64,000 bases of DNA from Candidatus Pacearchaeota archaeon (GCA_017609175.1 JAFCEJ010000003.1:77817-141816); one strand, 5' to 3'; positions 50,616 through 64,000 are shown, numbered from the stretch's first letter. Numbers and translations are program-made. Notes: a model not told the origin generated them from the letters alone.

Positions 50616-50624
50616 AAATAAAAA

Positions 50625-51321
50625 ATGGAAGAAGAAAATTTTTCAAAAAAGAATATCTTATATTACCACGAAGATTTTTCCCAATTACTGTTACAGTATT
50701 TATTCTTAAAGAACCCCAAATCTTTTTTGGACGTTGGGGGGGGACGGAGGATTAGTCTATTTCCTAAATAAAAAAGGCTATCTTAAAAACATGGAGGTAT
50801 ATGTAATAGACATCTCTAAACATAGGATCAAACAAATTAAAAGAATAAATCCTTTATTTAAATGCTTTATTAATAATGCCATGGAAATGAAAAACATACA
50901 AACGGGTTCGATAGATTTTTTAGTATCTACACAAGTAATTGAACATGTTAAAGATGACAAAAAGATGGTAAAAGAAATTTCAAGAGTCTTAAAGAAAGAT
51001 GGTATTGCATATATTTCAACTATTTTTAAAAAAAGATATGGATGGTATTTTTACAAAAAAGATGGTAAATGGAGATTACATCCAGAACATGTAAGAGAGT
51101 ATACTTCAGACGACCAACTAATAAATATTTTAAAAGAAGAAAATTTTCAAATTATAGAAAATAAGAAGAATATGCTTTGGTTTCCAATAATAGAGCCGAT
51201 TTTTAGAATATTGAAAGTAAGAAGAGATATTTTTGAAATTAAATTTTTTAGTAAATTAAGAATTTTTAAGATACCGATAATTGGCTATTATGAATGGGAA
51301 TTAGTTATAAAGAAAAAATGA
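50625..51321 (+). pseudogene. Class I SAM-dependent methyltransferase disrupted by a +1 frameshift in a G8 homopolymer
   Basis: An ATG at 50625 opens ...KSFLDVGGG. The G8 run at 50736-50743 shifts the frame and a stop follows at 50769. The downstream ORF 50734-51321 continues DGGLVYFL.... With G7 the two parts fuse into one intact methyltransferase carrying LDVGGGDGG. Confidence 0.6.
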
Positions 51322-51992
51322 AATTTAAAACATCAATAGAACAAAGATTAACTGGAAGGCACAAAGCCTGTTTACTAATAGCAGATTTTAGAAATAAAAG
51401 AATTCTCGATATTGGGTGTGGTTATGGGTGGTTTGAGAAAAAAATAGGGAAAAAATCAAAAGAGATTGTTGGAATTGATTTAAATAAAAAAGATCTGGAA
51501 ATTGCAAAGAGTGAATGTAAAGAAAAGAATTGTTATTTTGAAAGAGGCTCTGCATTAAATTTAAAGAAATTTAAGAAAGATTATTTTGACATAGTTGTAA
51601 TGTTTGATGTAATTGAACATATTCCAAAAAATACTGAAAAAAATGCTTTAAGAGAGATAAAAAAGGTTTTGAAAAAAAGGGGGACTTTGATTATCACCAC
51701 TCCTGCAAATAATTTCTCAAAATTTTTTGACCCGGCATGGTATTTTGGGCATCGGCATTATCACATAAAAAAATTAAAAAAAATGCTCGAAAGTGAGGGA
51801 TTTGTCGTCGATAAAATAGGAATAAAAGGAGGGTTTTGGGAGTTACTTAGCATGACCTTATTTTACCCTTGCAAATGGATTTTTAATTCAGAAATCCCTT
51901 GCAAAAAATGGTTTGATAAAAAAAGAGATGAAGAATATTTAAAAAAGAAAAAAGGGTTTATGACAATATTTATTGTAGGATACAAAAAATAA
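51294..51992 (+). CDS. Class I SAM-dependent methyltransferase
   Basis: It has ILDIGCGYGWF (motif I). The start is either 51294 or 51319. Confidence 0.7.
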   Translation: MGISYKEKMKFKTSIEQRLTGRHKACLLIADFRNKRILDIGCGYGWFEKKIGKKSKEIVGIDLNKKDLEIAKSECKEKNCYFERGSALNLKKFKKDYFDIVVMFDVIEHIPKNTEKNALREIKKVLKKRGTLIITTPANNFSKFFDPAWYFGHRHYHIKKLKKMLESEGFVVDKIGIKGGFWELLSMTLFYPCKWIFNSEIPCKKWFDKKRDEEYLKKKKGFMTIFIVGYKK

Positions 51993-53725: not shown

Positions 53726-55273
53726 CTAGTTATTAAATTTATAGATTATAAGTGTTGGTTGCCCATTCCTATAAAATGCTTTTACAAAAGTCAAATTATG
53801 CTGTTGAGGGTAAGTATAAGCCCATTGAGGGGTAAATGCAGGTTCAAATCCATGTATAATAAAATAATGAGGCTTAATTTTTTGAATTTTTTTATCAAAA
53901 AGGGTTTTATTATGGACCCCATTAGGATCTGTTTCATTTCTAACATAAAAATCATAACAACTTCTTTCAGAGTAATATTGCATTTGGACGATTGAAGCAG
54001 TTATAATTTTTGCATCCTTTGGGGTACTTTGTTTTAACCATAAACCTGCATCTTTTAATTCCTGGTAACTTCCAAATTTAGCATCAATAAAATTATTAGA
54101 GGATTTTATCTGAAAAAAAGAAAGAATTACAATAAAAAGAATAATAAATAAAAGAGTTGAGGTTTTTTTATTAAAAAAAGAAGATAATTTTGTTAGAAGA
54201 TAATTAACTCCATATGCAGAAGTTACACTAATAGTTGGAAATAAAATTAAAAGATATCTTGCATCAATATTTTTTATTCCAAAAATAAAATAAGAGACGG
54301 GAATTAATAAATTTAAGAAGATAAAAAGCAAATGATTTCTAGATTTATTTTTTTGTAGAAAAATTAAATCAATATAAAAGAATAACTGCAGAATCAAAAT
54401 AAATCCGATGATGAAAAAGATTATTAAAAAATTATTCAATAAAAGAGGAAGATGAAAAGTGAGGACATTCCATCCAAAAGGGCTTTGTTTAACAGTGGGA
54501 TTTGAACCATGATAAAAACCTAGTGCCGGAAAAATATTTCCGAAATGAGATTGATTAAATAAAAAGAAAGGACTTAAAAAAAGAAGACCCAAGATTATTG
54601 CGATATAAAATTGCTTTTTTCTAAATAAAGACATTCTTTCGGTAATCAACATGTATGTTGCTATGGAAATTAAAATTAAAGCTCCAGTATATCTTGCAAG
54701 AAAAGATAAAATTCCAAAAAAGACTGCAAAATAAAGTCCAAAATTTTTTTGTTTTCCTTCATAATAAATCAAAAAGAAGAAAATAGCTAAGGTTCCAAAA
54801 AAAGTGCTTGGAATATCTGTTAAAAGCCTAAATGAATAAAACACCCAAACCCAATTAAAGGAGAAAATAGAAGTTGAAATTATTGCTATTTTTTTATTAA
54901 AAAGATACTCAGATATTCGGTAAACCAAATAACAAGTTAATATTGACGGGATAAGAAGTGTAAAAAACCGGATTGCTGTTTCACCTAATCCTATTTTAAA
55001 AAATAAACTCCATATAAAAGGGATGAATAATGGTCGCATTAAGATAAAATGTTCCCACCATTCTGGTATTGGTTGATTCAGCCCCCAAACTTTTGCTATA
55101 GCTAAATAATCTCCTTCATCCCACCAAATTGGCTGGTTTCCAAGCTTAAAAAAATAGTAAAGATAAACGAAAATTACAGCAATTCCAAGAAAAACAGATA
55201 TTTGATTATATGGGTCCTTAAGCCAATTTTTTATTTTCTCTTTTTTTTCAAGAATTTTTTCTTCAGATTCCAT
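53726..55273 (-). CDS. GT-C fold glycosyltransferase (ArnT/PMT-like, GT39/GT83-type)
   Basis: It has more than 10 TM, a WWDEGDY motif in the first loop and a C-terminal soluble domain. Confidence 0.6.
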   Translation of the reverse strand: MESEEKILEKKEKIKNWLKDPYNQISVFLGIAVIFVYLYYFFKLGNQPIWWDEGDYLAIAKVWGLNQPIPEWWEHFILMRPLFIPFIWSLFFKIGLGETAIRFFTLLIPSILTCYLVYRISEYLFNKKIAIISTSIFSFNWVWVFYSFRLLTDIPSTFFGTLAIFFFLIYYEGKQKNFGLYFAVFFGILSFLARYTGALILISIATYMLITERMSLFRKKQFYIAIILGLLFLSPFFLFNQSHFGNIFPALGFYHGSNPTVKQSPFGWNVLTFHLPLLLNNFLIIFFIIGFILILQLFFYIDLIFLQKNKSRNHLLFIFLNLLIPVSYFIFGIKNIDARYLLILFPTISVTSAYGVNYLLTKLSSFFNKKTSTLLFIILFIVILSFFQIKSSNNFIDAKFGSYQELKDAGLWLKQSTPKDAKIITASIVQMQYYSERSCYDFYVRNETDPNGVHNKTLFDKKIQKIKPHYFIIHGFEPAFTPQWAYTYPQQHNLTFVKAFYRNGQPTLIIYKFNN

Positions 55274-55299: not shown

Positions 55300-56172
55300 T
55301 TATTTTGTACTTTCAATTCTTATCCAGATTTTTTTAAATTTCTTTTTTTTCAAATTTATATCCTTAAAAATCAAAAACCACAAATAAACCCTAATTAAAA
55401 TAAGTTCTATTGTCCAAAGAAATTCTTTTATTGTTTTTGGGTAGGACAAAACTTGTAAAATTCCGAGAGACTCTTTTGAAAAAGAACGCATCTCTTTCTT
55501 AGTCCATTTTTTTATTTGGTTATATCCTCCAGCAGAACGTCTTTTTTGATTAATCCAATCCCTAAGAGTTGTTGGAAATTTAACATAAACTTTTGCTTCT
55601 GGGGAATAATCTATTAAATATCCTTTTGAGTAAATCATATGGGAGATTAATCCGTCATCAGAGAGGGTTTCTTCTGGAATCCTTTTAATTATATTTCTTA
55701 TTGCATAAAGATAACCCGAACAATAAAATCTTTTTTTAATTTTTATTGCTTTTTTTCTCCTTTTATCAGCTATATCTGTAAGTAGATGTGACCAATATCC
55801 TAATTTGGTATTCCTATTATTTATAGAAATGGGCCTTCCTGAAACAGCACCAATTTTTTTGTTTTTGAATGGTTTTAATAAATATCTGAGAGCATTTTTA
55901 TCTATAAATACATCTCCGTCAGAAAGAATTAAAATTTCTCCTTTTGCTTTTTTAAAGGCGAGATTTAATGCAGAAGGTTTTCCTTGTCCAGAGTCTTTAA
56001 GTGTTTTAATTTTTGGGTTTTTTTTAGAATATTTTTTTACAATATCTAAGGTTTCTTTATCTGGTGCCAAGACTAAAATTTCATAATCTTTTAAATTATT
56101 TGATAAAAAAGAATCTATTGCCCTACCAATTGTTTTTGATTCCTTATATGCTGTTATTATTATGCTTATCAT
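55300..56172 (-). CDS. GT2 glycosyltransferase
   Basis: It has ISIIITAYKES and SDGD. Confidence 0.8.
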   Translation of the reverse strand: MISIIITAYKESKTIGRAIDSFLSNNLKDYEILVLAPDKETLDIVKKYSKKNPKIKTLKDSGQGKPSALNLAFKKAKGEILILSDGDVFIDKNALRYLLKPFKNKKIGAVSGRPISINNRNTKLGYWSHLLTDIADKRRKKAIKIKKRFYCSGYLYAIRNIIKRIPEETLSDDGLISHMIYSKGYLIDYSPEAKVYVKFPTTLRDWINQKRRSAGGYNQIKKWTKKEMRSFSKESLGILQVLSYPKTIKEFLWTIELILIRVYLWFLIFKDINLKKKKFKKIWIRIESTK

Positions 56173-57272
56173 TTTAATAAATTAATCAATTTTACAGAAA
56201 GTTTACTCCATTTAAAGATTTCTACACTTTTCCTTGCATTTTTTTGGATTTTAACTAATTCTTTATTTGATAAAGAAAATACATAGTCCAGAGTTTTTTT
56301 AAAATCATTCTTATCTCCAACCTTAAACAAAAATCCATTTTCTTTATTTTTAATTATTTCTTTTGCTCCAAGAGTATTAGAAGAAATCACAATTTTCCCT
56401 AAAGCCATTGCTTCAATTAATGCTTGGGGCATAGCTTCTCTTTTACTTGGAAGAACAAAAATATCTGCTTCCTGTAATTTTTTTATCTTTTTGTCTAAAT
56501 CATAGATAGGATTTAAAAATTTAATTTTTCCTGAAGAATATTTTTTTATTTTTTCGTACCCGTTTTCGATAGGACCGATAATTTCAAAAAAAAGATTTTT
56601 TTCATAGTGATTAATTATTTCAATAGGAATTTCAAGATTTTTTATTGGAGCAATTCGTCCTAAAAAAAGGATTTTCCTATTATGAGGGGGTTTAATCGTT
56701 TGTTTAAAAAATTTATCTGGAATCCCATTTGGAATGTATTCTATCTTTTCTTTTAAAGCTCCTAATTTTTTAAGATGTTGTTGTTCCCATTTTGTAATTG
56801 AAATTATTTTTGTAAATTGATTAATTTTTGGTTTTACTTTAAAGAAATAATAGGTTTTTGTCAATATTGAGAGAATAGAATTTCTCTTTACTTCGAAAGG
56901 AGCATGGGGAACAATATAACAAGGAATTTTTAATTTTTGGCATATTTTAAGAACCTTGAAAGAATGGGGATGAAAGAGATGAGTAATTACCCTACTCGGT
57001 TTTAATTTGATAAGTTCTTTTTCAAAATCAAAATAGATTACATTTCTAGAAATAAATTTGCTTATAAAATCCTGGCGTGATTTAAATCTCCTAATTTTTA
57101 TTTCCCCAACGACTTCTTTTTCTTTAGCAATTTTGTTTGTTCCTTTTTCAATATTAGAAGAAAAAACATAGACATCGTGCCCTTTTCTTGCAAGTTGCTC
57201 TGCTTCTTGTTTTACCCTTATCCAAACTCCGCAAATACCTGCTGAAAAGGGGCATAGTTCAAGGATTTTCAT
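56169..57272 (-). CDS. GT4 glycosyltransferase (group 1)
   Basis: It has the C-terminal GT4 signature EAMALGKIVISSNTLGAKEII..ENGFLF. Confidence 0.8.
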   Translation of the reverse strand: MKILELCPFSAGICGVWIRVKQEAEQLARKGHDVYVFSSNIEKGTNKIAKEKEVVGEIKIRRFKSRQDFISKFISRNVIYFDFEKELIKLKPSRVITHLFHPHSFKVLKICQKLKIPCYIVPHAPFEVKRNSILSILTKTYYFFKVKPKINQFTKIISITKWEQQHLKKLGALKEKIEYIPNGIPDKFFKQTIKPPHNRKILFLGRIAPIKNLEIPIEIINHYEKNLFFEIIGPIENGYEKIKKYSSGKIKFLNPIYDLDKKIKKLQEADIFVLPSKREAMPQALIEAMALGKIVISSNTLGAKEIIKNKENGFLFKVGDKNDFKKTLDYVFSLSNKELVKIQKNARKSVEIFKWSKLSVKLINLLK

Positions 57273-57285
57273 TATATTTATAAAA

Positions 57286-58344
57286 GTGGGTGGGATTTTA
57301 AATTTAATGAATCTAAAACATTTAATAAAAGAAGCAAAATATTATAAAAAATTAGATGGAAATTTAAGAAGAATAGGGATAAAATTTATTTTAGCTAAGA
57401 CCCCTTTAAAAAAGTGGGTAAATAGCACAAGTTATATTCTTATTTATAAGAAAAGAATAAAAAAACTATCTAAAAAAATAAGACCAAAATTCCTACAAAT
57501 AGAAAACACCAATATCTGTAATGCTAGGTGTATTATGTGTCCGCATACTTCTATGAAAAGAAAACAAAAAATAATGGACCAAAAAAAGTTTGAAAAAACA
57601 ATTAAGAGAGTCCTTAAAGATTATCCCTCAATAAAAACAATTATAATTACAGGATTTGGAGAACCATTAATAGATAAAGAAATAGTAAAAAAAATAAAAT
57701 TCATAAACAGATTATATCCCAAATTACAAATTGATATTTACACTAATGCTTCTTTATTAGATAAAAAAATAGCTGAAGAACTATTAAAAACAAAATTACA
57801 TAAAATAAATTTTAGTATAAATGGAACAAAGAAAACTTACAAAAAAATGATGGGGCTTAATTACAATAAAACAGTAAAAAATGTTTTAAATTTTATTAAG
57901 AGAAGAAAAGAACTAAAAAAGAAGTGGCCTCTTGTCAACATTTCCCTAATGATTTTAAAGGAAAATGAAAAAGATGTAGAAGAATTTCAAAAATTTTGGA
58001 TAAACAAGGCAGATTCAGTAATGATTTATCCTCCTTCCAACTGGGCGGGAAAACAAAAAATAAACTTTGCTGTTCAAACACCCTTTAAAATAAAAAGATG
58101 GGCATGCAATGCTTTGTGGCAGTACATCACAATAGACGTTGAAGGGAATTTAATAATGTGTTGTAGGGACTATGAATCTAAGATTAAATTAGGAAATATA
58201 TTAAACAAAAATGCTAAAGAAATATTTGAAGGGAAAAAAATAAATGATATACGAAAAAGACAATTAGAAGGAGATTTTTCAATGCCAATATGCAATAGGT
58301 GTGATAATTCATTTGATTCGAGTTTAGGATGGTGGGTAAAATGA
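57286..58344 (+). CDS. Radical SAM / SPASM-domain protein
   Basis: It has CNARCIMC (CxxxCxxC) and a C-terminal Cys cluster (CNALW...MCCRDY...CNRCDN). Confidence 0.8.
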   Translation: MGGILNLMNLKHLIKEAKYYKKLDGNLRRIGIKFILAKTPLKKWVNSTSYILIYKKRIKKLSKKIRPKFLQIENTNICNARCIMCPHTSMKRKQKIMDQKKFEKTIKRVLKDYPSIKTIIITGFGEPLIDKEIVKKIKFINRLYPKLQIDIYTNASLLDKKIAEELLKTKLHKINFSINGTKKTYKKMMGLNYNKTVKNVLNFIKRRKELKKKWPLVNISLMILKENEKDVEEFQKFWINKADSVMIYPPSNWAGKQKINFAVQTPFKIKRWACNALWQYITIDVEGNLIMCCRDYESKIKLGNILNKNAKEIFEGKKINDIRKRQLEGDFSMPICNRCDNSFDSSLGWWVK

Positions 58345-59225
58345 AAAAAGTTTCAATTATAATCCCTACATACAATGGGCTCAAAGTATTAAAAAAATGT
58401 TTGGAATCACTAAAAAAAACAGACTATAAAAACCTAAAAATAATTTTAGTAGATAATGGCTCAAGCGATGGTACTATATCATTCATAAAAAAGAATTATC
58501 CTTCAATAGAAATAATTGCCCTAAACAAAAATTATGGATTTGCGTATGCAGTTAACAAAGGAATTAAAAAAGCCATAAAAGATGGATCAGATTATATTTT
58601 AAGCTTAAATAATGATGTCATTATCCCAAATAAAAATTGGATAAGGGAACTAATAAAAACAGCAGAGAAAGATAATAAAATAGGCATTATTGGAATAAAA
58701 ATTACTTCTAAAAATAAAAGGTTACAGTTTTTATTTTATGGATTAAAAAGCGAGGGGGAGTTGGATAAAGGACAATATGACTTTATTAGGGAAGTTCCTG
58801 CAATAAATGGTGTTGCTATGTTTATAAAAAAAGAAGTAATTAAAAAAGTAGGATTTTTTGATGAAAGATTTTTTTATGGGAGAGATGATCTAGATTATGG
58901 GTTTAGAGCAAGGAAAGCCGGATTTAAGGTAATTTATAATGGAAAAATTAAACTAATCCATTATGGAGGATATTCCTTTAAAATTTCTAAAGGAAAAGAA
59001 AGTTTAAATTTATTCAAAGAAAAAGAAAAAGGTTTGCTCTTATTTAGTTTTAAACACCTAAATTTAAAATCAAAAATTTTGGCGGTATTGAGAGTATTTA
59101 TAGATGTATTTATTTCAAAAGAAAATAATAAAAAAATTTCGATTAAAAATATTCGGTTTAATAAAGATTTTTTAAAAAGATTATATTATGCTTTTTTGTC
59201 TTTTAAAGAAACTATTTTTTCCTAA
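58341..59225 (+). CDS. GT2 glycosyltransferase
   Basis: It has VSIIIPTYNG and VDNGSSDGT. There is an ATGA overlap with the upstream stop. Confidence 0.8.
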   Translation: MKKVSIIIPTYNGLKVLKKCLESLKKTDYKNLKIILVDNGSSDGTISFIKKNYPSIEIIALNKNYGFAYAVNKGIKKAIKDGSDYILSLNNDVIIPNKNWIRELIKTAEKDNKIGIIGIKITSKNKRLQFLFYGLKSEGELDKGQYDFIREVPAINGVAMFIKKEVIKKVGFFDERFFYGRDDLDYGFRARKAGFKVIYNGKIKLIHYGGYSFKISKGKESLNLFKEKEKGLLLFSFKHLNLKSKILAVLRVFIDVFISKENNKKISIKNIRFNKDFLKRLYYAFLSFKETIFS

Positions 59226-59466
59226 AGAAAATGGATGGTTTTTTTATTACGAATGGAATAAATGGGTAAACAGAAGATGCTAAACTCCATTCAATACCCC
59301 ATGTATTTAAACATCCGGGGCATTTTTTTATATCTTGCCTTATTTTTTTTGCGAGAGAAGACTTCCAAATTTTTGTTGGAGAATCTTTCAAGATATTTCC
59401 GGCTACAATATGGGATTTCATAAGACAAGGAGTCACATCACCATTATATCTTAATAAAAAAACTAT
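59212..59466 (-). pseudogene. C-terminal remnant of a second radical SAM/SPASM gene
   Basis: ...YNGDVTPCLMKSHIVAGNIL...IRQDIKKCPGCLNTWG aligns with the C-terminus of the 57286 protein (IDVEGNLIMCCRDYESKIKLGNIL...IRKRQLEGDFSMPICNRC). No radical SAM N-terminal part is present. Confidence 0.5.
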
Positions 59467-59546
59467 TTAAAACAAAACACCGAAATCTAAAATTATCTTT
59501 AATGATTTTAACTAATGCTTCATGATGAAATCCCTCAGGAAATTTC

Positions 59547-59711
59547 CTAATTGCTTTTAATAATTTTTTCTATATCCTCGGTAGAACCATCATCAACTAC
59601 GATAACCTCATAATGCTTATAAGTTTGATTAAATATGGACCTCAACGTATCTGTAAGGGTTTTAGAACAATTTTTTACTGGGATAATAATAGAAAATTGG
59701 ATATTTTTCAT
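59547..59711 (-). pseudogene. N-terminal remnant (54 aa) of a GT2 glycosyltransferase
   Basis: [54 protein letters not shown] then stop. This is a canonical GT2 N-terminus that ends prematurely. Confidence 0.5.
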
Positions 59712-59762
59712 AAGAAGACAAATATATTTAAATTTATAATCTTTGTTATCTTATCTATAAAA

Positions 59763-60614
59763 ATGATAAGCATTATAATCCCCACATATAACGAGGAAAA
59801 AGACATATTAGATTGTTTAAAATCTTTAGAAAGGCAAACCTATAAGAATTTTGAAATAATTATTATTGATGACGGCTCCACGGACGAAACAATAAAGAAG
59901 ATAAGAGAATTCTCTAAAAAAGATAGAAAAATAAGAATATTAAATCAAAAACACAAAGGCCCTGGAGCAGCAAGGAATTTGGGGGCAAAATATGCAAAAG
60001 GGGAAATTCTTATTTTTGTTGATGCAGACATGACTTTTGATAAAGATTATATCAAAAATCTTATAAATCCTCTCGAGAAAAAAGAGATAATTGGAACTAC
60101 TCATGAAACAGAAATTGCAAAGAATATAAAAAACATCTGGAGCAATTGTTGGGGAAGAATAAGGGTTTCTAAAAAAGGTGCTAAAAAAGTTAAAATTTTT
60201 AGGGCAATTAAAAAAGATTTTTTTTTGAAGAGAGGTGGATTTGATCCAAAATATGGTTATGCGGATGATCAAACATTTTGGTTTAAATATAGAATAAAAC
60301 CGATTGTTGCAAAAAATACTATTTGCTATCATAAAAATCCAGAAACACTAAAATCTGTTTATAATCAAAGCAGATGGATTGGATCCTCTTCACTTTCTAG
60401 ATGGCTAAAAATACCAATTATAAACTGGCTCGTTGTGGGGGTCTTATTTGTTATCTCTCCCCCATTAATCATTATCTTAGCAATTAAAAAAACTCTTAAA
60501 ACAAAAAATTATAAAATCTTTTTCCCGTGGATGTTAATCTTTACCACTGTCCGTTATTTTGGAACATTAGCAGGTTACAAAAGAAAAATTTTAAGGGGGA
60601 TAAATTTTAGGTAA
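59763..60614 (+). CDS. GT2 glycosyltransferase with C-terminal TM
   Basis: It has MISIIIPTYNEE, IIIDDGSTDET and VDADM. The start was moved from the tracked 59613 to the ATG at 59763. Confidence 0.8.
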   Translation: MISIIIPTYNEEKDILDCLKSLERQTYKNFEIIIIDDGSTDETIKKIREFSKKDRKIRILNQKHKGPGAARNLGAKYAKGEILIFVDADMTFDKDYIKNLINPLEKKEIIGTTHETEIAKNIKNIWSNCWGRIRVSKKGAKKVKIFRAIKKDFFLKRGGFDPKYGYADDQTFWFKYRIKPIVAKNTICYHKNPETLKSVYNQSRWIGSSSLSRWLKIPIINWLVVGVLFVISPPLIIILAIKKTLKTKNYKIFFPWMLIFTTVRYFGTLAGYKRKILRGINFR

Positions 60615-62255: not shown

Positions 62256-64000
62256 ATGGAGGAGATTAAGGAAGAGGGATTCTTTTTCAAAATTTTTGAC
62301 AAGATTTTAGATTACGTAATATCTTTAAAAGAAAATAAAACACACCTTTATCTTTGGATTATTGTCTTAATAGGACTTATCCTAAGGATTATTGCGATGA
62401 TAAATATTTCCTGGGATGGAGATTCCCCCCATTATATGATTCATGCTATTAACTTTACAAAATCAGGGTTATTAACATCATGGAATCAATCCGCAGGATT
62501 ATGGTATTTTTTAACAAGTATCATGTATTCTATTTTTGGATTTAGTTATATTACTGCAAGAATTCTAACTCTATTCGTAAGCACATTAACTATAATTGCA
62601 ATATTTTTATTTACAAAAGAATTTTTTAAAAATGAAAAAGCTGCACTAATTTCTGCTATGTTCTTTGCATTCTATTCTGGAAGCATTAAAATGACTATTG
62701 CATTTATGCATGCGATGGTTTTATTGTTGTTAATTATGGGGATGTATTACCTCTTAAAAGCAGAAAGAACAAACAAGAACCGATATTACCTCATTGCGTT
62801 CCTATATTTCGGGGTTTCTCAAATGTTAAAAGCATACACGGTTTTATTTTGTCCAGGAATTGTTTTGTTTATGATAGGGAATAAAATCATTATTGAAAAA
62901 AAAGATTATAGAGAAGTTATTAAAGACAAATTGCTCTGGAAAAGAATTTTTCTTTTTGGAGTTATAATGATTTTATCTTTTTCTCCAATAGCCATCTATA
63001 ATTATCTCCTTTACAAATACAATGGGCATGCAGATATGCAATTTACAAGAATGTTTGGACTTTATAATGAAAAGGCTGACAGGTTATTCTCATGGGATCC
63101 GGGGTACCACCAATCATTTAACCCCCTTAAACTATTTTGGAAAGGAAACTATGCAAATACACCTGATATAATTACCCTCATTTCATATTTTTTTGCGCTT
63201 GCCCCATTCATAACAATCCTATTCTTTTTCTCATTAATTTATTCTATTAAAAATATTCAGAAAAATCCCCTAATAAAAAAGTATCTTTTATATTGGGTTT
63301 TAGTATTATTGTTCCCCATGTTTTATCTCATATCAGTATTAACGCTTCCAAAGCAAATAATATTTTTCCCGGCATTTTTTATCCCATTAATATCCTATTC
63401 TCTTTTTAAGGATATAAGAATTACAAGAAAAAAATTTATTGGACTATTAATTATTTTCCTATTCTTTTGCTTATTTGCCCTTTCAATAACTTATAGGGTT
63501 CATGAGAATTTCTATTATAAAAAACCCAACATTCAATTATTTGATGTAGGAAAAAATATCCAAGAAAATAGCCTAGTTATTCAGGACCCAAGAATCTATG
63601 GGGGGTATGTTCTCTTATCTTTTTTTAAGGCCCCTATAATAACTCCCTATGAATTTCAGGAAATTATGAATTTAAATCAAAACCTTAGTGATCAAATATG
63701 GATTGATTTATACTTCATAAGAAAAATAGAAGATAAGGAATCTTCTCTAGAATTAGAAAATTATTTCAACGTATTAGAAAATCAAACAGAGGTAGTTAAA
63801 ATAATTTATGATAAAGATTTAGAGGTCCATTATTTAGAGAATGAAAATATTAGTAAAGGGACAATGAAATACACCCTTAAAGATCCTGTCCAATTTAATT
63901 TAGGCTATTGGAAATTTTATAACCCTTTTATAAGCCATCCAAAAGAAATTCCAGTATATAAAATTCATAAAACACAAATATCGTTTAGCAAATCATTGTT
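62256..64000 (+). CDS. Large polytopic membrane protein, GT-C-like glycosyltransferase candidate; 3' end outside the window
   Basis: The ORF runs from the ATG at 62256 to the window end with no stop in my reading. It has an N-terminal multi-TM domain with WDGDSPHY in the first loop and a soluble C-terminal region. It is not in the ORF track, probably because there is no stop inside the window. Confidence 0.5.
   Translation, partial: MEEIKEEGFFFKIFDKILDYVISLKENKTHLYLWIIVLIGLILRIIAMINISWDGDSPHYMIHAINFTKSGLLTSWNQSAGLWYFLTSIMYSIFGFSYITARILTLFVSTLTIIAIFLFTKEFFKNEKAALISAMFFAFYSGSIKMTIAFMHAMVLLLLIMGMYYLLKAERTNKNRYYLIAFLYFGVSQMLKAYTVLFCPGIVLFMIGNKIIIEKKDYREVIKDKLLWKRIFLFGVIMILSFSPIAIYNYLLYKYNGHADMQFTRMFGLYNEKADRLFSWDPGYHQSFNPLKLFWKGNYANTPDIITLISYFFALAPFITILFFFSLIYSIKNIQKNPLIKKYLLYWVLVLLFPMFYLISVLTLPKQIIFFPAFFIPLISYSLFKDIRITRKKFIGLLIIFLFFCLFALSITYRVHENFYYKKPNIQLFDVGKNIQENSLVIQDPRIYGGYVLLSFFKAPIITPYEFQEIMNLNQNLSDQIWIDLYFIRKIEDKESSLELENYFNVLENQTEVVKIIYDKDLEVHYLENENISKGTMKYTLKDPVQFNLGYWKFYNPFISHPKEIPVYKIHKTQISFSKSL

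Follow-up and report, generated by a model that had tools for sequence, protein, structure and literature searches.

The 64-kb stretch of DNA analysed here (the window, 64,000 nt) comes from an uncultivated DPANN archaeon (Pacearchaeota/Nanoarchaeota-like) and holds an archaeal surface-glycan island with AglB/STT3, eight glycosyltransferases and flippases, together with an archaeal SecY. In particular, domain matches across the window identify six family-2 glycosyltransferases (GT2) as well as GT4, Glycos_transf_4, flippase, PMT_2, carbamoyltransferase and B12-radical SAM (B12-rSAM) genes. One part of this island contains an intact rSAM/SPASM gene and two intact GT2 genes (GT2a and GT2b) on the plus strand and, between GT2a and GT2b, two gene fragments on the minus strand (Table 1). 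The original prediction placed open reading frames at 57286-58344 (+), 58341-59225 (+), 59547-59711 (-) and 59212-59466 (-) and a GT2 start at 59763, all of which are correct, and both fragments are real gene remnants whose domain matches are far beyond chance. The first fragment, the GT2x stub, matches positions 1-47 of Pfam Glycos_transf_2 (PF00535; E = 3e-15), and the second, a raw 84-aa stop-free stretch, matches Pfam SPASM (PF13186; E = 2.4e-9), each above its gathering score.

Table 1. Coordinates of the intact genes, gene remnants and predicted regulatory features, numbered from the first nucleotide of the window.
Feature	Position	Strand	Description
Radical SAM/SPASM gene, intact	57286-58344	+	Pfam Radical_SAM 5e-21, SPASM 1e-11; probable start ATG 57307
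GT2a, intact	58341-59225	+	Pfam 2.9e-28; convergent on remnant
rSAMx remnant, downstream segment	59212-59457	-	LLRYNGDVTPCL...CPGCLNTWGIEWS...FRKK + stop; residues ~263-346, extreme C-terminus
Frameshift site	59456-59462		A7 (plus) / T7 (minus) homopolymer; 2 nt short or 1 nt long relative to NSFFLLRY
rSAMx remnant, upstream segment	59456-59569	-	KKLLKAIRKFPEGFHHEALVKIIKDNFRFRCFVLNSFF; residues ~225-266 of ~346-aa relatives; no start codon
Putative deletion junction zone	59553-59572	-	GT2 homology ends, rSAMx homology begins
GT2x stub	59571-59711	-	First ~47 codons of a family-2 glycosyltransferase, ...VVDDGSTED; GT2-like residues possibly to codon 52 (59556)
Divergent spacer	59712-59762		51 nt; palindromic TATA core TTATAA at 59734-59739
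GT2b, intact	59763-60614	+	Pfam 1.5e-39; promoter spacer common to GT2b and stub

The intact flanking genes have clear orthologues at other loci. The rSAM gene is 60-61% identical to orthologues in two of them (L002 and L004), each divergent from an upstream GT4 gene, and GT2a has an orthologue in L004 (8261-9217). GT2b is a widely conserved Pacearchaeota/Nanoarchaeota GT2 with 2073 homologues at E <= 1e-30, the best of which are 60-66% identical and 274-293 aa long (leaving out the source's own call, P0083, at 100%), and the N-terminal alignment of its orthologues favours a start at 59763 over one at 59613. A repeat search also detects a 49-nt similarity between the 5′ ends of GT2b and of another GT2 gene of the window (55300-56172).

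The stub encodes 54 aa up to a stop codon at 59547-59549. It contains the N-terminal nucleotide-sugar-binding beta-strand and the DDGS motif (SIIIPVKN and VVDDGSTED) and lacks the DXD/catalytic part (PF00535 positions ~48-168); rSAM-derived sequence lies downstream of it. The original prediction aligned the stub with an intact copy in the same locus, which does not hold in any specific sense. The stub is 63% identical to P0002, 56% to GT2b and 42% to GT2a (BLASTP for GT2a and GT2b) and matches six GT2 genes of the window at 38-50% (tblastn); being nearer to GT2b than to GT2a, its resemblance to the latter reflects generic GT2 N-terminal conservation. GT2a, at only 42% identity, is by this comparison judged not to be the stub's parent. 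An inverted duplication of the 5′ end of GT2b was also considered as its source and rejected: the amino acid identity is 56% over 45 residues and the DNA identity only 72% over 53 nt (E = 0.1), which is not distinguishable from generic GT2 conservation.

For the SPASM fragment, the relevant family lies outside this locus. Word-indexed searches with short fragments yielded almost nothing, and an exhaustive HMMER search was used here; its 80 hits identify the fragment as the C-terminus of 330-360-aa rSAM/SPASM proteins, whose full-length members align with it at their own C-termini. Six full-length relatives each produce two collinear minus-strand tblastn HSPs in adjacent frames, with residues ~225-266 at 59569-59453 and residues ~263-346 at 59460-59218. 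The downstream HSPs have E-values from 1e-22 to 1e-28, the upstream ones, found for all six, from 2e-6 to 9e-3 (701-nt search space), and the upstream segment also matches 'EDLILSIKKFPDSIYHRFVIKSLKYKYKFKC*AMNTFF' in locus L007. The two fragments are therefore not separated by 80 bp as supposed: the rSAM remnant (rSAMx) runs on upstream in another frame and occupies 59569-59212 on the minus strand, comprising the last ~120 codons with one frameshift. Residues 1-224 of the six relatives have no match in 59100-59800; across the full window their only counterpart is the distant intact rSAM. The 64 kb contain neither of the missing parts, namely the first ~225 rSAM codons and the GT2 catalytic part.

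Apart from its truncation, the rSAMx remnant is well preserved. The codons for NSFF end at 59456 and those for LLRY begin at 59457 in the next frame; correcting this frameshift yields a complete SPASM domain (profile positions 1-66 of 67, E = 1.4e-10) and no Radical_SAM domain (Pfam). Of 23 family-consensus residues, the remnant retains 21, along with all four family-invariant cysteines; its mean identity to the family is 34% compared to 32% between members, and it has no in-frame stop over 120 codons in a region of 26-30% GC. Its own stop codon falls within the convergent GT2a gene, 14 nt from the 3′ end. The reading frame is nevertheless interrupted at the T7 run, and the radical SAM core (PF04055), including CX3CX2C, is wholly missing. 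Neither the stub nor the remnant is predicted to be capable of catalysis, because the former lacks the DXD/acceptor part and the latter the radical SAM core.

The parent of the remnant belongs to a ~346-aa radical SAM/SPASM-twitch family (PF04055 + PF13186) with the C-terminal motif F.C...NGDv.PC...GN...C.GCLN.W..WS, which the remnant matches, although unlike the family it has lost the entire radical SAM core and is frameshifted. The family reaches no NCBIfam curated cut-off, and NCBIfam assigns rSAMx to no named family. The remnant is 44-59% identical to the family over the C-terminal segment, and 44-55% to six relatives (P0005, P0006, P0008, P0009, P0015 and P0019). These rSAMx relatives occur in glycan operons directly after glycosyltransferases; for example, the gene order is GT4-rSAMx-B12 rSAM in L008 and STT3...GT2-GT4-rSAMx-methyltransferase in L011, where the GT2 genes upstream of rSAMx have no special similarity to the stub.

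These relationships bear on the proposal that the fragments are a decayed duplicate of the adjacent rSAM-SPASM and GT2a cassette that arose when paralogous cassettes recombined. The fragments and their intact neighbours do share the same two Pfam domain families, the stub has its 42% identity to the GT2a N-terminus, and the remnant gives a weak alignment with the homologous part of the intact rSAM C-terminus. However, that alignment is not significant by BLASTP or tblastn; its Smith-Waterman score, computed with the frameshift-corrected remnant, is 49 (z = 2.4) and is equalled by 19 of 500 shuffles, whereas true relatives have z > 50, and the intact rSAM is itself only 21-26% (about 23%) identical to the family that the remnant so clearly matches. 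A decayed copy could not converge on another family and keep 21 of 23 of its consensus residues. Further, blastn finds no nucleotide similarity between 59200-59762 and the intact genes, the stub is nearer to GT2b and other GT2s than to GT2a, and the remnants read GT2 to rSAM on the minus strand while the intact genes read rSAM to GT2 on the plus strand, which is neither a tandem nor an inverted arrangement (an inverted copy would read rSAM to GT2 on the minus strand). A duplicate of the neighbouring cassette is thus extremely unlikely, and these alignments indicate that the SPASM remnant has another parent than the intact rSAM.

Instead, the minus-strand region 59212-59711 is probably a unitary pseudogene scar, created by one deletion in a minus-strand GT2-...-rSAM operon. 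The ancestral operon would have started at the promoter common with GT2b and encoded GT2x first and a ~346-aa rSAMx last, with perhaps one further gene in between; one deletion would have taken codon ~48-53 of GT2x through codon ~225 of rSAMx, joining the remnants out of frame, and a homopolymer slip or sequencing error in the T7 run would account for the one frameshift. The deletion would measure at least ~1.2 kb; with an intervening GT4 gene, as in L011, it would reach ~2.6 kb. Full-length homologues exist elsewhere, and the remnants are collinear with their ends and lack the interior. Of the original prediction, the deletion scar is supported, because a GT2 5′ stub runs straight into the 3′ third of an rSAM gene of like orientation and no other part of the window contains what the two have lost; the duplicated, paralogous cassettes are not, because the parent is of a different rSAM subfamily, DNA similarity is lacking and the gene order does not fit. 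The search for a closely related genome with GT2x and rSAMx intact yielded none: at the loci with rSAM orthologues (L002 and L004) or GT2b orthologues (L012-L014), synteny is not conserved, the best flanking-gene orthologues are only 60-66% identical and the neighbours differ. Consequently, we infer the ancestral state, the single event, the deletion's size and its recency from the sequence of this locus; the absence of any further decay in the remnant suggests that the deletion is young, although such near-perfect conservation would also be compatible with a retained function or with a strain-level polymorphism of very recent origin.

At the junction, the Pfam GT2 alignment extends to codon 53 (59553), the HSPs of six rSAMx relatives start at 59566-59569, and over the ~15 nt in which both readings are plausible there may be microhomology. 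Stub and remnant could have been brought together by two or more independent events, whether separate truncations or replacement by horizontally acquired DNA, as glycan islands are mosaic (gene content is different in each of L002, L004, L012 and L013). But the remnants abut directly on the same strand, separated by nothing foreign and by no more than the ambiguous ~15 nt, which makes one deletion the most parsimonious explanation and several events very unlikely.

The same junction might also be an assembly artefact, in which two strain variants or loci were joined in AT-rich low-complexity sequence, the frameshift is a homopolymer error, and the real genome has either intact genes or no such genes here. 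The contig is indeed metagenome-derived; P0001 and P0083 are each recorded on only two contigs (P0001 from JGI; P0083 from JGI and NCBI), probably of the same assembly; the junction is A/T-rich and of low complexity, and the frameshift falls within a 7-nt homopolymer. Yet the remnants lie on one strand in the order expected of an internal operon deletion, GC content is uniform across the junction (0.26-0.30), and a repeat search around it finds only AT-rich low-complexity matches, none of them able to cause a collapse. Moreover, stub and GT2b flank a promoter region of canonical layout, and the tight packing of the remnant's 3′ end against GT2a is what a genuine compact genome would show. Overall, an artefact is unlikely, and a genuine deletion is the preferred reading.

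The start codons of the stub and GT2b are divergent and 52 nt apart, in agreement with the divergent GT2 starts about 50 bp apart of the original prediction; the antisense overlap it added would exist only with the over-long GT2b start at 59613, which is not favoured. The spacer between them is predicted to be a shared bidirectional, leaderless promoter. In particular, the centre of its TTATAA core lies 0.5 nt off the midpoint, at distances of 25.5 nt to the start of the stub and 26.5 nt to that of GT2b, and genes of the window have a T-rich (-29 to -27) plus A-rich (-26 to -22) signal, counted from the ATG. The same central hexamer occurs in three other divergent intact pairs (4015/4064, 13787/13838 and 39558/39612), with start spacings of 49, 51 and 54 nt and a chance expectation of ~0.9% per pair. 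A crude TATA weight matrix gives the stub's promoter register a score of 3.46 (top 2.4% of positions) and GT2b's strict register -1.38. BRE elements are not recognisable in the AT-rich spacer beyond an A-rich position at -32, and a scan for sigma-70 promoters and terminators, irrelevant to an archaeon, stays at chance level. By its geometry, the divergent layout is best described as a normal archaeal shared-TATA bidirectional promoter, and the scar is probably still transcribed, because the stub's start and first ~47 codons survive beside a promoter that serves GT2b. More broadly, sequence geometry suggests that leaderless mRNAs are in use in this genome, along with shared-TATA bidirectional promoters whose starts are 49-54 nt apart.

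The fragments might alternatively have kept a function, as a promoter-proximal micro-ORF, as an antisense or convergent transcript that modulates GT2b or GT2a, or as a stand-alone Fe-S (twitch) mini-protein toggled by T7 slippage. The good TATA register upstream of the stub, a transcript that would meet GT2a head-on at its 3′ end, and decay limited to one frameshift in a slippage-prone homopolymer are all compatible with this; recency, however, explains the lack of decay equally well, and the three reading frames cannot be read as a single protein. A homologue search finds no conserved short relatives of the stub, and no homologue with the same truncated architecture as the remnant exists among 1.84 billion representatives. 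An 86-aa look-alike (P0004) was examined as a conserved mini-protein and rejected: on its 579-bp contig the gene is full-length but carries an in-frame TAG in the place of a Tyr codon, and the 86 aa are only its tail. A retained function is accordingly very improbable. It is highly improbable that the scar is an active element through which the glycan island is regulated or phase-varied. In that reading, the shared-TATA promoter would fire into the stub and remnant, producing a transcript convergent on the GT2a 3′ end or a micro-protein, and T7 slippage might toggle a twitch-type Fe-S mini-domain.

As a deletion scar, the fragment pair is an ordinary pseudogene of a kind already known, and its significance beyond annotation is small. 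Two likely database mis-annotations are corrected, namely a GT2 called 50 codons too long and a 69-aa "protein" that is in fact a pseudogene tail. GT2x and an rSAM sugar- or cofactor-modifying enzyme would have been lost recently from the surface-glycan island of this DPANN archaeon, which fits a rapid turnover of cell-surface glycan loci.

Deletion pseudogenes occur in variable surface-polysaccharide loci, both in bacterial O-antigen/capsule clusters and in archaeal agl N-glycosylation islands. The scar resembles them in that truncated glycosyltransferase or sugar-modifying genes lie among intact ones in a mosaic, fast-rearranging locus, recognisable domain ends are kept, and gene content varies between neighbouring genomes; it differs from them in its DPANN host and in the lack of a visible IS element or repeat at the junction. 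The promoter layout, which may be more useful than the scar, likewise has known counterparts. In archaeal shared-TATA bidirectional promoters, transcription start sites are spaced 49-52 bp around one TATA box, as found in P. furiosus (PMC6640164) and in T. kodakarensis and H. volcanii (bioRxiv 10.1101/2020.01.31.928960). The spacer between the stub and GT2b has the same single symmetric TATA box midway and about the same spacing, although here the spacing is between start codons, assuming leaderless mRNAs, rather than between mapped transcription start sites, and one of the two partners is a dead gene. This promoter layout, known until now from maps in Thermococcales and haloarchaea, would thereby extend to a DPANN archaeon.

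The 57-60 kb region carries a radical SAM/SPASM gene (intact rSAM), GT2a and GT2b on the plus strand and two minus-strand fragments, the GT2x stub and the SPASM fragment, a layout in which the ORF map and the raw sequence bear out the original prediction. The Pfam matches of both fragments exceed the gathering scores, and the fragments are genuine domain pieces rather than chance ORFs.

Gene features at 57-60 kb and divergent start-codon pairs elsewhere in the window
Feature	Coordinates	Strand	Evidence or remark
Radical SAM/SPASM gene (intact rSAM)	57286-58344	+	ORF map, raw sequence, Pfam; probable ATG 57307
GT2a	58341-59225	+	ORF map, raw sequence, Pfam
GT2x stub, 54-aa ORF	59547-59711	-	Glycos_transf_2 positions 1-47, E=3e-15 (Pfam)
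SPASM fragment, 84 aa, stop-free	59212-59466	-	SPASM, E=2.4e-9 (Pfam)
GT2b	starts 59763	+	ORF map, raw sequence, Pfam
Divergent pair	4015/4064		49 nt; TTTAAA or TTATAA <=0.5 nt from midpoint; genes intact
Divergent pair	13787/13838		51 nt; TTTAAA or TTATAA <=0.5 nt from midpoint; genes intact
Divergent pair	39558/39612		54 nt; TTTAAA or TTATAA <=0.5 nt from midpoint; genes intact

The fragments had been interpreted as copies of the intact neighbours, left by duplication and recombination between paralogous cassettes, but alignments, family identity and gene order all contradict this. In particular, the SPASM fragment yields only spurious 4-7-residue matches to the intact rSAM (BLASTP) and no match at 58100-58344 in a tblastn search of the whole window. 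After frameshift correction, the Smith-Waterman alignment of the remnant to the intact rSAM lies at the homologous position with a score of 49 (z=2.4, equalled by 19 of 500 shuffles), compared to z>50 against its real relatives. The GT2x stub is 42% identical to GT2a, 56% to GT2b and 38-50% to six GT2 genes of the window (tblastn), a likeness that is generic GT2 N-terminal conservation; the DNA of 59200-59762 has only AT-rich low-complexity matches in the window (blastn). Moreover, the intact cassette runs rSAM to GT2 on the plus strand, whereas the remnants run GT2 to rSAM on the minus strand; tandem duplication should leave a plus-strand copy, and inversion a minus-strand copy in the order rSAM to GT2, so that duplication fits neither geometry and is rejected.

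Searched exhaustively with HMMER, 1.84 billion representatives yielded 80 matches to the SPASM fragment. The full-length matches (330-360 aa; database proteins P0005, P0006, P0008, P0009, P0015, P0019 and others) carry Radical_SAM and SPASM domains (Pfam), and the fragment aligns at the extreme C-terminus of each, for example at residues 265-346 of 350, with 42-55% identity. These relatives share 37-44% identity with one another and 21-26% with the intact rSAM, and none reaches a curated NCBIfam cut-off, leaving the family without a name. Judged by sequence, the parent gene, rSAMx, is a radical SAM/SPASM gene of another family than the intact one beside it. The unnamed ~346-aa family (four-Cys, twitch-like) recurs in glycan operons. 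At locus L008 (1320-2354, P0006), its gene overlaps the 3' end of the preceding GT4 by 4 nt and a B12-radical SAM gene is next; at locus L011 (6001-7053, P0005), a methyltransferase gene comes after it. The family may be an uncharacterised sugar-modifying enzyme.

For six full-length relatives, tblastn gives two collinear HSPs each in adjacent frames, with residues ~225-266 falling on 59569-59453 and residues ~263-346 on 59460-59218. Further, the in-frame reading of L007, a 579-bp contig encoding the closest relative (P0004), has the extra upstream sequence "EDLILSIKKFPDSIYHRFVIKSLKYKYKFKC*AMNTFFLLRYKGDV", which is matched by "KKLLKAIRKFPEGFHHEALVKIIKDNFRFRCFVLNSFF" in another minus-strand frame of the window. 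The rSAMx remnant thus covers 59569-59212 and comprises the final ~120 codons out of ~346, more than originally predicted, with one frameshift within the A7/T7 run at 59456-59462. Once corrected, it contains a complete SPASM domain and no radical-SAM core (Pfam), and residues 1-224 of the relatives find nothing in the 64-kb window except a distant match to the intact rSAM. P0004 itself is 59% identical to the remnant, and its contig (L007 1-579, ENA contig k141_88772) has an in-frame TAG (200-202) at the family's conserved Tyr (KFKC*AMNTFFLLR), and gene calling breaks the gene into ORFs of 66 and 86 aa; the TAG may stem from nonsense mutation, sequencing error or recoding.

GT2 homology extends from 59711 as far as codon ~47-53 (59571-59553) and rSAMx homology starts at 59569, so that the two remnants abut with an overlap zone, readable both ways, of at most ~15 nt, possibly a microhomology. 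Both are on the same strand, GT2 preceding rSAM and the two mutually out of frame, as a deletion within a co-directional operon would typically leave them; with the interior absent from the window, the deletion originally proposed was right. It would have removed ~190-280 GT2 codons and 225 rSAM codons, a minimum of ~1.2 kb. As rSAMx relatives directly follow GT4 in L008 and in L011, where the order is STT3 ... GT2-GT4-rSAMx-methyltransferase, a GT2x-GT4-rSAMx ancestor with a ~2.6-kb deletion is plausible, if unproven.

Of 23 positions with at least 70% conservation among 35 family members, the remnant keeps 21, all four Cys among them, and replaces the other two conservatively (L to I, A to V). 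On average it is 34% identical to members, on a par with the 32% between members over the same columns, and it has no in-frame stop across 120 codons at a GC of 26-30%. This near-absence of decay indicates that the deletion is recent or a polymorphism at strain level, or at worst that it is an assembly artefact (a mis-join or homopolymer error). P0001 and P0083, the latter the database call of GT2b, are recorded on two contigs only, probably one assembly held in JGI and NCBI, as an artefact would allow; a mis-join is opposed by the uniform composition across the region, a blastn and repeat search that found no long repeats, and the coherent operon geometry. Overall, the scar is most probably a young deletion pseudogene, real but ordinary, in which a GT2 5' stub is fused to the 3' third of an unrelated radical SAM/SPASM gene within a variable glycan island. 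In JGI sample 3300047160, a 2346-bp contig holds a 58-aa GT2 N-terminal ORF (gene 969-1145, P0003) mid-contig in unrelated surroundings, followed by a ~320-nt gap; such short GT2 5' stubs may be common.

The window's archaeal-type SecY and STT3/AglB oligosaccharyltransferase mark it as archaeal, and the flanking genes have their orthologues in Nanoarchaeota/Pacearchaeota MAGs. Its 40.6-64 kb portion is a surface-glycan island with AglB, a Glycos_transf_4 phosphotransferase, two flippase-like proteins, six GT2, one GT4, an epimerase/dehydratase, a B12-radical SAM, methyltransferases, a carbamoyltransferase and two PMT_2 membrane transferases. The orthologous loci L002 and L004 each contain the rSAM (60-61% identical) with a GT4 placed divergently upstream of it, and in L004 the GT2 beside this GT4 is retained as well; beyond this the loci differ, and the genes around GT2b orthologues at 64% identity are unrelated. 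Surface-glycan islands are mosaic and fast-evolving, and a deletion scar in one is therefore expected. A methyltransferase ORF at 50734-51321 (+) has a TTG start at its SAM-binding glycine motif (LFWTLGGDGG), and the 117 nt 5' of it (region 50617-51321) are in frame, with a stop but no ATG; it adjoins an intact paralogous methyltransferase (51294-51992) and may be a second 5'-degraded gene of the island. At 62256-64000 (+), an ORF of at least 581 codons (PMT_2, E=3e-12), missing from the ORF list because it runs past the window end, is a second membrane glycosyltransferase besides 53726-55273.

The predicted divergent GT2 start ~50 bp from GT2b is real, the two ATGs (59711 and 59763) being 52 nt apart, but its antisense overlap holds only if GT2b starts at 59613, as in P0083 (333 aa, NCBI and JGI), and vanishes with the orthologue-supported start. 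The next-best GT2b homologues (60-66% identical; 54-66% among the matches listed) have lengths of 258-294 aa, and their alignment begins with MISIIIPTYNEEK at 59763, as it does for the orthologues of 274-293 aa; the P0083 start is evidently ~50 codons too early, and GT2b is better annotated as 59763-60614 (+) than as 59613-60614. The 5' ends of GT2b and of the GT2 at 55300-56172 (-) form a 49-nt inverted repeat, 78% complementary and 3.6 kb apart (56134-56182 versus 59753-59801), and both proteins start MISIII; the repeat may be conserved N-terminal coding, or could be an inversion substrate.

Upstream of the ATG, 74 window ORFs are T-rich at -29 to -27 and A-rich at -26 to -22, with no clear Shine-Dalgarno signal. 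The T-rich/A-rich signal sits where archaeal TATA boxes usually lie relative to start codons, which indicates mostly leaderless mRNAs. Between the GT2x stub and GT2b starts, a palindromic TTATAA (59734-59739) is centred 0.5 nt off the midpoint, and the three intact divergent pairs of the table are built alike; such a central hexamer has a ~0.9% chance in a random span. The four pairs and the window-wide signal suggest that this DPANN archaeon has shared-TATA bidirectional promoters. Together with a spacing like that of mapped promoters, the central TTATAA indicates that the divergent start preserves the promoter setting, original and canonical, of GT2x, and we infer that the stub's 5' end may have been spared because its loss would damage the GT2b promoter. 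In experimentally mapped bidirectional promoters, whose TSSs lie on either side of a single TATA box, the TSS spacing is 49 bp in P. furiosus (PMC6640164) and for the most part 52 bp in T. kodakarensis (bioRxiv 10.1101/2020.01.31.928960), and the window's start-codon spacings of 49-54 nt, known here from sequence geometry, match these archaeal TSS spacings.
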